In this document: piece after piece, positions 28,684 through 40,729 of the stretch
Numbering within the stretch: the first letter of the stretch is position 1
Layout: each line of letters begins with the position of its first letter
From: an uncultured Acidobacteriota bacterium
Lineage (GTDB): Bacteria > Acidobacteriota > Vicinamibacteria > Vicinamibacterales > UBA2999
NCBI GenBank assembly: GCA_963741135.1
Contig: CAVUHC010000002.1
Span: 255,413 to 319,412 of the forward strand
Direction: 5' to 3'
DNA length: 64,000 nucleotides
Notes under the pieces: model-generated
The model's input: only the letters and a program-made list of their open reading frames with translations
What the model was told of the DNA's origin: nothing
Databases searched by the model: none
Program-made: the position numbers and the translations under genes

Positions 28684-29652
28684 TCATGGAGACACCACGG
28701 GCGTGATTGGCGGTTGACCCGACAGCACTGCCGCGACGTTGCGAACGGCGAGATCGGCCATCGCTGTCCGGGTCTCGACGGTGCCGCTGCCGAGGTGCGG
28801 CACGAGCATCACGTTTTCGAGCGTGAGCAGCTCGGGCTCGACGTTCGGCTCCTGCTCGAACACGTCGAGCCCCGCGCCGGCGATGAGCCGCATGCGCAGC
28901 GCCCAGGCGAGCGCCTTCTCGTCGATGACAGGTCCGCGCGACGTGTTGATCAAGTACGCACTGCGCTTCATGCGCGCCAGCGCCGGCTGATCGATCAGGT
29001 GCTTCGTCTCCGGCGTCAGCGGGCAGTGCAGCGAGACGACGTCGGATGTGGACGAGCAGGCGATCGAGCGGCATCGCTTCAGCGTCGGGATCGTTCTTCG
29101 GCGTGCGGCTCGTATAAGCGATGCGCATGCCGAACGCCCGGCCGCGCGCCGCAACGGCGCGGCCGATGCCGCCGTAGCCGACGATCCCCAGCTGCTTGCC
29201 GCGCAGCTCGGACGCCCAGCATGAAGTCGAAGGTCCATCCCTTCCACCCGCCGCGTCGGACCAGCCGCTCGCCTTCGCCGATGCGCCGCGTGATCCCGAG
29301 AATCAGCGCCCAGGTCAGATCGGCGGTCGCGTCGGTCAGCACGCCGGGCGTGTTCGTGACGATCACGCCGCGCTCGCGCGCGGCCGCCGCGTCGATGTTG
29401 TTGTAGCCCACGGCGGCGTTCGCGATGATCTTCAGCTCCGTGCCCGCCTCGATGACCGCCTTGTCGACGGCATCGGTGATCATGCTGACGAGCGCCTGTT
29501 TGCCGGCGACTCTCGCGACGAGCTCGTCGTGCGGCATGACGTCGACACCGTCCTTGGCGGTATTGATCGACGTCACCGATCGATTCGAGCCTGGCGAGAA
29601 CCGACGAGGGGATCTTGCCGGTGAGAAGAATGGAGGGTCGCGCGCCGCTCAA
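28684..29652 (-). pseudogene. D-isomer-specific 2-hydroxyacid dehydrogenase (glyoxylate/hydroxypyruvate reductase-like); about 3 frame breaks
   Basis: Pieces lie in three frames: ARPSILLTGKIP..., then VGYNNIDAAAARERGVIVTNTPGV, then GIVGYGGIGRAVA..., then LHCPLTPETKHLI...RGPVIDE...LDVFEQEP...PHLGS. The TTG start overlaps the upstream stop (TTGA). Confidence 0.85.
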
Positions 29653-29883
29653 TGTCCCATCGACCTGCAATAGCCGCAGTGATTGCACATCACGGCGGGC
29701 TCGATGATGCACGGACCGTCGGCATCCGCGCCGGAACGACCGGAAAGACGGCGCCGGGTCGCGTGCGCGGTCAGGGTTCGCCAGGTCCGCGGCGGTTCGC
29801 GAAGGTGCGCGGGTGCTGGTTCGGGCGCGCGCTGACGCGGCGATCGCCTGGCGAACGAGCGCCCGTAGTTCCTGCTCGGTCAT
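29649..29883 (-). pseudogene. About 77-aa protein: amphipathic N-terminal helix plus C-terminal Cys motif (C-x10-C-x2-C-x2-C); internal frame break
   Basis: N-terminus MTEQELRALVRQAIAA. The C-terminus in another frame reads DADGPCIIEPAVMCNHCGYCRSMGH followed by a stop. ATGA overlap with the upstream BMC-P gene. Confidence 0.55.
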
Positions 29884-30153
29884 TCCTGAACGTCCACCTG
29901 GTCGATGATGCCGATGACGGCGGCATCGACGGGCGCTCCCTTGCGGCCAAGCGCTTCGCCGGCGGCGCGTCCCTCCAGAACGATCAAGCACCTTCTCGTG
30001 CACGCCGGCACCGACCGAATCGACGGCCAGGAGCGGAGTGCCGCGCGGCGTGTCATCCAATGAGACGGGCTGCACCAGCAGGAGCTTCGCACCTTCGAAC
30101 TTGAGGTGCTTCTGTGTCGCCACGACGGTGCCGATGACTCTGGCAATCTGCAT
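29880..30153 (-). pseudogene. BMC-P (EutN/CcmL) pentamer shell protein 3; one frame break near 29985
   Basis: MQIARVIGTVVATQKHLKFEGAKLLLVQP...AVDSVGAGV in one frame, then VLIVLEGRAAGEALGRKGAPVDAAVIGIIDQV in ORF 29880-30146. Confidence 0.85.
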
Positions 30154-30158
30154 TTCTT

Positions 30159-30425
30159 CTACCCAAGATCCCAGTGATCGACGATGCCGACGATGCCCGC
30201 GTCCGTCGGGACTTCAGTCGGATAGAACGGAAAGCTCGCTTCCTTGCCGCGGACGAAGAACACGGTTTCTCCGACGCCGGCGCCCACCGCGTCGACCGCA
30301 ACCAGCGTGCGTCCGACGTTCGATCCGTCGGCGGCAATCGGCTGCAGGACCAGGAGCGTGATCCCGGCAAGGTTTTCGTCCTTGCGCGTGATGACGATGT
30401 CGCCGATGACCTTGGCGAGCTGCAC
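30159..30425 (-). CDS. BMC-P (EutN/CcmL) shell protein 2
   Basis: GTG start. VQLAKVIGDIVITRKDENLAGITLLVLQP...AVDAVGAGVGETVFFVRG...DAGIVGIVD. Confidence 0.85.
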   Translation of the reverse strand: MQLAKVIGDIVITRKDENLAGITLLVLQPIAADGSNVGRTLVAVDAVGAGVGETVFFVRGKEASFPFYPTEVPTDAGIVGIVDHWDLG

Positions 30426-37803: not shown

Positions 37804-38607
37804 GAGTCGACGCGATGATACCGCCGAATCTCGTCGGCGACGCGCGCCACCTGAAGCATTTCGCTCGACGGCATGGACGCGGACGATATGTGCGCCGGCG
37901 AGCACCGCAGCCGTGACCGCCGCCGCCGTCGCCCAGTCACGTTCGACGCCGCCGGCACGCGTGCGCCGAGCGCGCGGGCGAGGAACGATTTCCGCGACGG
38001 ACCGACGACGAGCGGGCCGTCCAAGCTCGCTGAATTCGTCGAGGCGCGCGAGCGCCTCGAAGCTGTGAGGCGCCTCCTTCGCGAATCCAAGCCCCGGATC
38101 GACGAGGATGCGATCCTTGCGCGACGCCGGCGCCGGTGGCAAACGCCATGCTCTCGCGCAGCTCGTCGAGCACCTCCGCGACGACGTCGCCGTAGGACGC
38201 CTGCTGATACATGTCGCGCGACCGGCCGCGCGTGTGCATCAGGACGATCGCGGCGCCGCGCCGGGCCACGACGTCGGCCAGCTCCGGCTCGTAGCGCAGA
38301 CCGCTGATGTCGTTGACGATGGACGCGCCCGCGGCAAGCGCTGCGTCGGCCGTCGCGGCCTTGTAGGTGTCCATGGAAATCGGCACCGTCGACGCGACCG
38401 GCCAGTCCCTCGATGACCGGAATCACGCGCCGCCGCTCCTCCGCGTCGTCGACGATCGCGGCGCCGGGGCGCGTCGACTCACCGCCGACGTCGATGATGC
38501 CGGCGCCCTGCTCCACCATCCGCACGCCCGCCTCGATCGCCGTCGGCGGGATCGAAAAGCTCGCCGCCATCGGAAAAGGAATCCGGTGTCACGTTGACGA
38601 CGCCCAT
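37800..38607 (-). pseudogene. folP: Dihydropteroate synthase; at least 4 frame breaks
   Basis: MGVVNVTPDSFSDGG, GAGIIDVGGESTRPGA, ISMDTYKA, IVNDISG, DPGLGFAK and VGPSRKSF in alternating frames. The start may lie further upstream (to about 38660). Confidence 0.85.
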
Positions 38608-38698
38608 GATCACCGTGCGATCACCGAATACCAGCGCCTGCCCACCGGGAGTGGAACCGTGAATCGACGCCGCGGATTCACGCTTTGAACACTACAAC

Positions 38699-38808
38699 AA
38701 GTTCGAAGGTCGAAGGTCGAGGTGCGAAGTAAGTTCGAAGTACAAAAGAAAGGCCCGTGAAACGACGGGCCTACTTCACTTCGAACTTCGAACTTCGAAC
38801 TTCGAACT
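38699..38808. repeat. Palindrome with (GTCGAAG)n / (CTTCGAA)n heptamer arms
   Basis: Arms at 38699-38744 and 38773-38808, flanking a canonical terminator hairpin. Confidence 0.9.
38741..38772 (-). terminator. Intrinsic terminator downstream of ftsH
   Basis: On the minus strand: AGGCCCGT-CGTTTC-ACGGGCCT followed by TTCTTTTGT. Confidence 0.75.
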
Positions 38809-40729
38809 TATTCCTGTGTGACCGTCCGCGGCGGCAGTGGCGGCACGATGGAAGCCGCTGGCCGTTCCTTGGCCTTCGGCTCGCGCGTCACGGCCGGCGC
38901 CGTGGGCGGGGCGGCCGGCGGGGCCGACATCGTCCAGCGCTTCGCCGGCGACGATGCGGCGGACCTGCTCGGCGTCGAGCGTCTCGCGCTGCAGCAGCGC
39001 CTCGGCCATTTCGATCAGACGCGCCTTGTGCTGCATGAGGATTGCCTGCGCGCGAGTGTAAGCCTCGGTCACGAAGCGCTTCACCTCGTGGTCGATCTTG
39101 AGCGCGGTGTCTTCGCTGTAGTCCTGGTGCTGCGCGATCTCGCGGCCGAGGAAGATCTGCTCTTCCTTCTTGCCGAAGGTCAGCGGCCCCATCGAATCGC
39201 TCATGCCCCATTCGCACACCATCTTGCGCGCGAGATCGGTGGCGCGCTCGAGATCGTTGCCGGCGCCGGTCGTGATGCTGCCCAGCGTGATCTCTTCGGC
39301 GATGCGGCCGCCGAGGAGAATGCAGATCTGATCCCGCAGGTAATCGCGCGAGTAGTTGTGCTTCTCGTCGATCGGCAGCATCGTCGTCAGGCCGAGCGCC
39401 ATGCCGCGCGGAATGATCGTCACCTTGTGGATCGGATCGGCGTGCGGAAGCATGACGGCCAGCAGCGCGTGACCCGACTCGTGGATCGCGGTGATGCGCT
39501 TCTCGTTCTCGCTGATGATCATCGAGCGCCGCTCGGCGCCCATGAGCACCTTGTCCTTCGCGAACTCGAAGTCGACCATCCGGACGACCTTCTGGTTGTA
39601 GCGCGCGGCGTTGAGCGCCGCCTCGTTCACCAGGTTCGCCAGGTCGGCTCCCGAGAAGCCGGACGTGCCGCGCGCGAGCACCGCCACATCCACGTCGTCG
39701 GAGAGCGGAATCTTCTTCGTGTGAACCGCGAGGATGCCCTCGCGTCCCTTCACGTCGGGACGATTGACGACGATGCGGCGATCGAAACGCCCGGGACGAA
39801 GCAGCGCCGGGTCGAGCACGTCGGGACGGTTGGTTGCCGCGACGAGGATGACGCCCTCGTTCGACTCGAAGCCGTCCATCTCGACGAGCAGCTGATTCAG
39901 CGTCTGCTCGCGCTCGTCGTGACCGCCGCCCAGGCCGGCGCCGCGGTGACGGCCGACCGCGTCGATTTCGTCGATGAAGACGATGCAGGGGGCGTTCTTC
40001 TTGCCCTGCTCGAACAGATCGCGGACGCGCGACGCACCGACGCCGACGAACATTTCGACGAAGTCAGAGCCGCTGATCGAGAAGAAGGGAACGTTGGCCT
40101 CGCCGGCGACAGCGCGCGCCAGCAGCGTCTTGCCGGTTCCGGGAGGCCCCATGAGGAGGACGCCCTTCGGGAATGCGGCCGCCGAGCTTCTGGAACTTCT
40201 GCGGCTCGCGCAGGAACTCGATGATCTCCTGCAGTTCGTCCTTGGCCTCGTCAACGCCCGCGACGTCCTTGAACGTGACCTTCTTCTGTGCGCTCGAGGA
40301 GAGCTTCGCCTTGCTCTTGCCGAACGAGAGCGCCTTGTTGCCGCCGCTCTGCATCTGGCGCATGAAGAAGATCCAGAAGCCGATCATCAGCAGGATCGGC
40401 GCCCATGAATACAGGAGCGCCGCCCACGGGCTCGTCGTCGGTTCGCGCGCGGCGACGACGACGTTCCGCTCGATGAGCTTGTTCGCGAGCCCCTCGTACT
40501 GGGGGGGCGCGTAGGTGCGGAAGTTGTCGCCGCTTTTGGAGGTGTACGTGATCTCGTTGCCGGTGATCGTGACCTTCTGGACCTGCGCCGCATCGACCTT
40601 CGACATGAACTCGCTGAAGGTTTCCGGCTTGTTGGCGGTCTGGAAGCGGGCAGAGAAGTTCCAGACCAGTCCCCCGATGAGGACCAGGACGATCCAGAAC
40701 ACCAGACTTTTCAGGGTTGAGTTCAACAA
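38808..40729 (-). pseudogene. ftsH: ATP-dependent zinc metalloprotease FtsH; frame breaks at G-run 40169-40171 and near 38910
   Basis: N-terminal TM and periplasmic part in ORF 40064-40729. [13 protein letters not shown], the SRH and HESGHA are in ORF 38776-40254. An alternative frame gives a natural tail ...[11 protein letters not shown] with TAA at 38808. Confidence 0.95.

Follow-up and report, generated by a model that had tools for sequence, protein, structure and literature searches.

The subject of this analysis is a dense cluster of broken reading frames in a contig of an uncultured Acidobacteriota bacterium (contig CAVUHC010000002.1 of assembly GCA_963741135.1), from which a stretch of 64,000 nucleotides, referred to below as the window, was analysed. 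Between positions 28684 and 38950 of the window, the minus strand carries 14 co-directional genes, from a 2-hydroxyacid dehydrogenase gene to folP, together with the 3' end of ftsH, and this block is interrupted by about 56-65 frame-shifting insertions and deletions (indels), mainly +1 insertions. The cluster does exist in the sequence record, but it is no genuine feature of the organism's biology. Judged by comparison with related genomes, each +1 insertion is a pair of natural alleles where every relative has a single position, and the consensus of this contig very probably combined the haplotypes of two strains present together, with both alleles retained at some single-nucleotide polymorphisms (SNPs).

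The window has a G+C content of about 64% and its nearest genomes are Vicinamibacterales (Acidobacteriota) metagenome-assembled genomes (MAGs). The nearest relative, designated L001, is an Illumina MAG with about 91% nucleotide identity by blastn over window positions 28697-38675, and the support for each indel was counted in a panel of 30-40 genomes, of which up to 28 covered one site. Compared with L001, the window displays 59 one-base insertions, 10 longer insertions and 21 deletions, 16 of the latter being of one base, which gives a ratio of 59:16 between one-base insertions and one-base deletions. When events at most 15 nucleotides apart were merged and the agreement of at least 75% of at least six relatives was needed, 56 net frame-shifting events were counted at 28684-38950, and the same conservative count gave five genic events in the 8.5 kb of covered flank. 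The density is about 6.0 events per kb in the block, 25 times that of the remaining window (about 0.24 per kb). The indels are missing from all relatives, and at many sites every covering genome (27/27 or 28/28, for example) is without the extra base of the window.

The same fragmentation appears in the open reading frames (ORFs) listed for the window, where glmM is spread over three frames and ftsH is split at about 40170. In tblastn searches with the ORFs of relatives, segments of high identity hop between frames in clean chains, the 2-hydroxyacid dehydrogenase being recovered as four such segments (94-97% identity) and glmM as four or five pieces. An earlier note on this DNA had reported roughly 35 frame changes between 28.7 and 38.9 kb; the cluster is confirmed here and its size had been undercounted, the figure being about 60. 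The minimum numbers proposed for the named genes are reached or roughly reached by the per-gene indel counts against relatives, and the breakage ascribed to the BMC-P genes holds for EutN1 and EutN3, with one insertion each, and not for EutN2, which is intact, as is the BMC-H gene. The frame path over the whole window was obtained by a codon-usage Viterbi analysis, which took the place of a frame plot of G+C content at third codon positions (GC3) that was too noisy. Consistent with the absence of breaks previously claimed for 4.8-16.2, 22.5-28.6 and 43-52.6 kb, this path contains no unexplained same-strand frame switch in these three intervals. About 13 further breaks were found in the other 54 kb from the Viterbi path, split Pfam domains and relatives, and the isolated breaks at about 1801, 2254, about 3701, 16536, 17480, 40169, 41675, 42623, about 53245 and 56268 were each verified either by Pfam domains split between adjacent ORFs or by relatives.

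That the frame breaks belong to the deposited sequence is attested by a public gene call of 435 amino acids, here P0001, located on an 809,072-bp contig in NCBI/ENA and found at 100% identity when the in-frame part of glmM was searched. P0001 has both phosphoglucomutase and PdxJ Pfam matches and is an exact substring of the window ORF at 34169-35593 (minus strand), spanning several insertion sites; therefore, the frame breaks sit in the deposited record. P0001 is a chimeric "protein" generated by consensus errors, in which the C-terminus of glmM is fused to out-of-frame pdxJ.

The cluster had been ascribed in the earlier note to homopolymer-prone reads. With the same bases inserted at random as the null, 52% of the one-base insertions were expected to be in contact with an identical base, and such contact was found for 8 of the 59 (p = 5e-10), 86% of the insertions being outside runs. 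This count refutes the homopolymer explanation. Even the sites at 30621 and 40169, formerly read as additional bases in runs of G, turn out by comparison with relatives to be doublets of two natural alleles which merely resemble run extensions; the relatives do not extend over the A-run sites at 1801 and 2254. The more general proposal of random or homopolymer-length indel errors, caused by noisy reads where coverage is locally low and without any strain variation, would be consistent with the scattering of frameshifts throughout the contig and with the indels known in low-coverage nanopore MAGs (PMC9262707), and of the seven one-base deletions within genes three are contracted runs of the classic kind. 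Against it stand both the scarcity of identical-base contact and the 59:16 excess of insertions over deletions, and the identity of the inserted bases makes it unlikely as a whole, as described below.

The inserted bases bear a signature of natural variation. Of the 54 genic insertions, 43 adjoin a third codon position, and for 37 of the 54 this position is combined with a synonymous alternative codon, against 44% under the null (p = 3e-4). In the clean-flank subset, defined by identical 4-nucleotide flanks on both sides of the insertion (n = 31), 25 are wobble-adjacent and synonymous (p = 4e-5). At wobble sites the inserted base has a mean frequency of 0.37 in the relatives, a value that none of 5000 simulations reached, compared to 0.24 +/- 0.03 in matched controls. 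A test independent of the reading frame was possible at 46 sites outside runs, and at all 46 the inserted base is a natural base of one of the two flanking columns in relatives, its frequency there being at least 20% at 42 of them (control 18.2 +/- 3.1, maximum 29 in 3000 simulations). At 31381, for example, GC in the window stands against C in L001 and G in all other relatives; at 31710, GC stands against G or C in relatives, and at 29053, GT stands against G or T. Random errors would neither hit on the other natural allele of an adjoining column at 42 of 46 sites nor favour wobble-adjacent synonymous bases.

Insertions are also denser where the window is locally more divergent from L001 (400-nucleotide bins; Spearman 0.54, p = 0.006), the corresponding relation per gene being weak and not significant (rho 0.37). 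Insertions are unevenly distributed among the genes, with 14 in the fastest-evolving one, a hydrolase gene, compared to 4.5 expected. Consensus calling in homopolymer-compressed (run-length) space, which makes an inserted base differ from both of its neighbours, would account for the scarcity of run-adjacent insertions; it leaves without explanation, however, the natural-allele identity of the inserted base, the wobble and synonymous bias and the correlation with divergence. As a full account it is very unlikely, and it could act as a co-factor of the merging of strains. Methylation or another sequence motif as the mark of insertion sites was rejected, as no position-specific signal or motif was found at these sites, and the frequency of palindromic 4-mers (25 of 59, background 34%) is not notable. 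The strain mixture which had been offered in the earlier note as one option is, on the other hand, supported indirectly by the allele doublets.

Apart from their indels, the genes of the block are in good order. A stitched reading was obtained by projecting the window onto the codons of L001 with indels ignored, and it contains no stop in 3052 aligned codons of 14 genes. The differences between window and L001 are 466 synonymous and 149 non-synonymous, with an amino acid identity of 88-100% per gene. In L001 all 14 genes are intact with full Pfam domains, namely folP, cdaA, a YbbR-type cdaR, glmM, pdxJ, the hydrolase, a TPR protein, a small protein, a class II aldolase, BMC-H, three EutN/BMC-P proteins and the 2-hydroxyacid dehydrogenase. 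Since some 60 frameshifts are the sole lesions of these genes, glmM, folP, cdaA and ftsH among them, these comparisons strongly support consensus error over gene decay as the origin of the frame breaks. The same distinction had been drawn beforehand, and the absence of stops, the large excess of synonymous differences and the absence of the indels from every relative all agree with it; the accompanying statement that neither premature stops nor deletions go with the shifts is correct for stops only, seven one-base deletions being present within genes.

A 10-kb region recently inactivated and now decaying, in which the indels would be genuine mutations, would also place them in the deposited sequence, where they are indeed present, and the block adjoins a lineage-specific 10-kb island. 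Moreover, the block is similar to the pseudogene clusters of decaying genomes in that many adjacent genes have broken frames. It differs from true pseudogene clusters by the lack of stops, by strong purifying selection, by the insertion bias, by the involvement of essential genes (glmM, folP, ftsH and cdaA being each struck many times) and by the allele doublets, the inserted bases copying natural alleles of their neighbours. In bacterial pseudogenes the bias is usually reported as deletional, and the 59 one-base insertions against 16 one-base deletions run in the opposite direction. The same signature is furthermore found at scattered sites across the whole window, and decay is thus highly improbable. 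Programmed recoding, by ribosomal frameshifting or transcriptional slippage, would restore the frames of the genes, and the stitched frames without stops are consistent with it, nothing beyond that being in its favour. It would have to operate about 60 times, as often as 14 times in one gene, at sites which have no common motif, seldom lie in runs and recur in none of the relatives (up to 28), so that its probability is practically nil.

Concerning the merging of two haplotypes, the following mechanism may be proposed. The contig, a long metagenome-assembled sequence of a member of the Vicinamibacterales, would owe its consensus to reads of two closely related strain haplotypes, hence to two putative read populations, and at a fraction of the SNPs the consensus would emit both alleles side by side (XY), which would add one base and shift the frame. 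By an argument of our own, a likelihood-type consensus would charge little for a missing base and much for a substitution, especially a transversion; in a near-even mixture, XY would cost each read one cheap deletion and X would cost half of the reads a costly mismatch. Such scoring would predict an excess of insertions over deletions as well as an excess of transversion pairs, the latter being observed. With about 60 doublets at 28.7-38.95 kb and sporadic ones elsewhere, the haplotypes would likely be of comparable contribution, or more different, in the block. Given two haplotypes, their difference in the block would be at least about 0.55% (54 doublets in about 9.8 kb). The few deletions are in part ordinary run contractions.

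Several points weigh against this explanation. The allele pairs are transversions in 84% of cases and C/G pairs in 67%, compared to about 50% and 31% respectively in natural wobble differences; doublets therefore form preferentially at transversions, as the scoring argument predicts without proving it. The block ends sharply at about 28.7 and 38.95 kb, for which a merging of haplotypes does not account by itself, and a limited search of the literature found no description of a doublet signature containing both alleles. A mosaic with a haplotype identical to L001 was also considered and rejected, no 400-nucleotide bin having more than 96% identity to L001.

Similar artefacts have been reported for related material. 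Frameshift errors are known in long-read MAGs, are worse in bins from soil or of low coverage and reach public protein sets (PMC9262707; PMC13087279), and many of the related soil MAGs fetched for this analysis have long contigs. Similar strains are also known to be collapsed into one consensus by assemblers (PMC13087279; PMC8302730 for the concept). The block resembles the long-read MAG errors revealed by truncated-protein tests of the IDEEL type in that single-base indels split conserved genes, whereas the textbook long-read error is one of homopolymer length, often a deletion, and the window contains insertions outside runs that correspond to neighbouring natural alleles. With strain-collapsed contigs, at which Strainberry, Strainy and Floria are aimed, the block shares the presence of two haplotypes in one sequence and a density of artefacts that tracks divergence; strain collapse is, however, usually described as a mosaic of substitutions, and in the window both alleles appear as a +1 doublet.

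Several features lie at the edges of the block. The left edge coincides with the junction of the 10-kb island at 18.6-28.7 kb, synteny with L001 is lost exactly at 28697, and the L001 contig ends near 38.7 kb. At the right edge lies a heptamer tandem repeat (38778-38809). These positions are suggestive of places where strain graphs could branch. A search for flanking direct or inverted repeats marking a mobile or duplicated segment gave short chance matches only. The window's exact FecR protein is carried by two 3-kb Logan short-read contigs (runs ERR12036786 and ERR15459708) covering about 25.95-28.99 kb, and both contigs stop some 60-100 nucleotides before the first doublet at 29053. Exact look-ups of EutN2, a 371-amino acid QueA-type gene, a 315-amino acid TilS ORF and P0001 returned no independent assembly of the same strain, and no match in JGI metagenomes was obtained with a strain-specific pattern of 98 bases that left the bases at two insertion sites optional.

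The island itself (18600-28700) encodes an amidohydrolase, an extracytoplasmic function (ECF) sigma factor, a Ser/Thr kinase, a CHASE2-HD signalling protein, OmpA and FecR. It is absent at this location in the relatives L003, L005, L008, L009 and L016, in which the 2-hydroxyacid dehydrogenase gene adjoins an HhH-GPD repair gene. Within the island, around 21285-21700, an amidohydrolase domain with its end at about 21284 is succeeded by a TIG domain in another frame (21352-22134) and by the ECF sigma factor gene in a third; the break at about 21.3-21.7 kb, earlier placed near 21669, may correspond to one or two frameshifts, or else to ordinary gene boundaries or to the junction of two domains.

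Gene by gene, all on the minus strand, the indels of the block are distributed as follows. The 2-hydroxyacid dehydrogenase gene (28684..29640) has +1 insertions at 29053, 29214 and 29552, and the alignment is untidy upstream of it, at 29731-29838. Among the microcompartment shell genes (29880..31027), the insertion in EutN3 is at 29988 and that in EutN1 is at 30621, as a GAT/GAC doublet. The class II aldolase gene (31132..31995) has six insertions, at 31381, 31620, 31710, 31772, 31801 and 31870, with the agreement of 27/27 relatives at every one. The region of a small YHS-like protein and the TPR protein (32084..33011) has insertions at 32247, 32409, 32439, 32571 and 32827, four one-base insertions being in the TPR gene, and one-base deletions at 32304 and 32797, in addition to some length differences of 2-9 nucleotides. 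The hydrolase gene (33044..33832), which has a weak dienelactone-hydrolase match and is the most divergent of the block, is followed by pdxJ (33829..34567) with insertions at 33950, 34146, 34188, 34222, 34383, 34474 and 34512. In glmM (34663..36010) there are insertions at 35487 and 35800, a one-base deletion at 34714 and a two-base deletion at 35946; in total this gene has three one-base insertions, one of them offset by a deletion 6 nucleotides off, and its deletions sum to four bases. Within 36079..37803, cdaR (YbbR) has insertions at 36316, 36339, 36479 and 36813, and cdaA has insertions at 37050, 37143, 37438, 37767 and 37778 and a one-base deletion at 37788. Insertions in folP (37800..38675) are at 37863, 38010, 38119, 38390 and 38544, and one-base deletions at 37944 and 38646. 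Finally, ftsH (38776..40729) has a +1 insertion near 38924, in a C-terminal tail that aligns poorly, and another at 40169, a GGG/GGA doublet.

The genes at 28684-31995 constitute a compact locus of microcompartment type, with BMC-H, three EutN/BMC-P proteins, the class II aldolase and the 2-hydroxyacid dehydrogenase. The Vicinamibacterales relatives that were examined have the same gene order. No gene for an aldehyde dehydrogenase was noticed in the vicinity of the locus, and it presumably resembles the Acidobacteria-type bacterial microcompartment locus.

Outside the block, the doublet pattern recurs at the isolated frameshifts at 16536, 40169, 41675, 42623 and 56268. The insertion at 16536 reads GCG|A|GCG (GCG/GCA), and a second isolated +1 is found at 17480. 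On the minus strand, the doublets are T/C at 41675, in tilS, and G/C at 42623, and further insertions split fabH at about 53245 and yebC at 56268 (AAC|T|CTG; AAC/AAT). The yebC break had been noticed before and was then placed at about 56285. On the plus strand, an ABC ATPase gene has frameshifts at about 1801 and at 2254 and a GldG-like gene has one at about 3701 (AAG|T|CCA). A methyltransferase break at about 57.2 kb is counted among the approximately 13 further breaks, as are the one at 38924 and that at about 21.3-21.7 kb.

Heptamer tandem arrays like that of the right edge occupy many intergenic spacers of the window (1224-1299, 15460-15506, 38778-38809, 42991-43024, 43605-43652, 44470-44512, 55380-55416 and 58439-58506), examples being CCCTAAC x10.6, ATCAGGG x9.9, GAATCGC x6.9 and ACTTCGA x4.6. 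They look similar to the heptamers of cyanobacteria known as short tandemly repeated repetitive (STRR) sequences. A longer repeat is found at 9880-11064, where a 147-nucleotide unit is present 8.1 times with 87% identity, corresponding to a 49-residue repeat in a 1240-amino acid ORF (8422-12144, minus strand). An Rfam scan of the window returned only a tRNA, at 41842-41915.

The consequences of these frame breaks concern mainly the public record. Fourteen genes are mis-called in the public MAG, including glmM, folP, pdxJ, cdaA and ftsH, and at least one chimeric glmM/pdxJ "protein" has already entered public protein collections. The doublet signature, that is, an extra base unlike its neighbours, adjacent to a wobble position and equal to a natural alternative allele, can distinguish artefacts of haplotype collapse from homopolymer errors without reads, and it points curators to haplotype-aware re-polishing and not to homopolymer fixing. 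The biological interest of the block is low, its value being in the quality control and curation of the MAG and in a read-free diagnostic. As for the organism, a living Vicinamibacterales cell with about 60 real +1 insertions, its essential genes freshly dead or read through by recoding, has a very slight probability; the doublets are likelier to mark SNPs of two coexisting haplotypes, the block being a local hotspot of microdiversity beside a strain-specific island. A metabolic reconstruction from the sequence as deposited would falsely score folate, pyridoxal 5'-phosphate (PLP), peptidoglycan-precursor and cyclic di-AMP (c-di-AMP) functions as lost.

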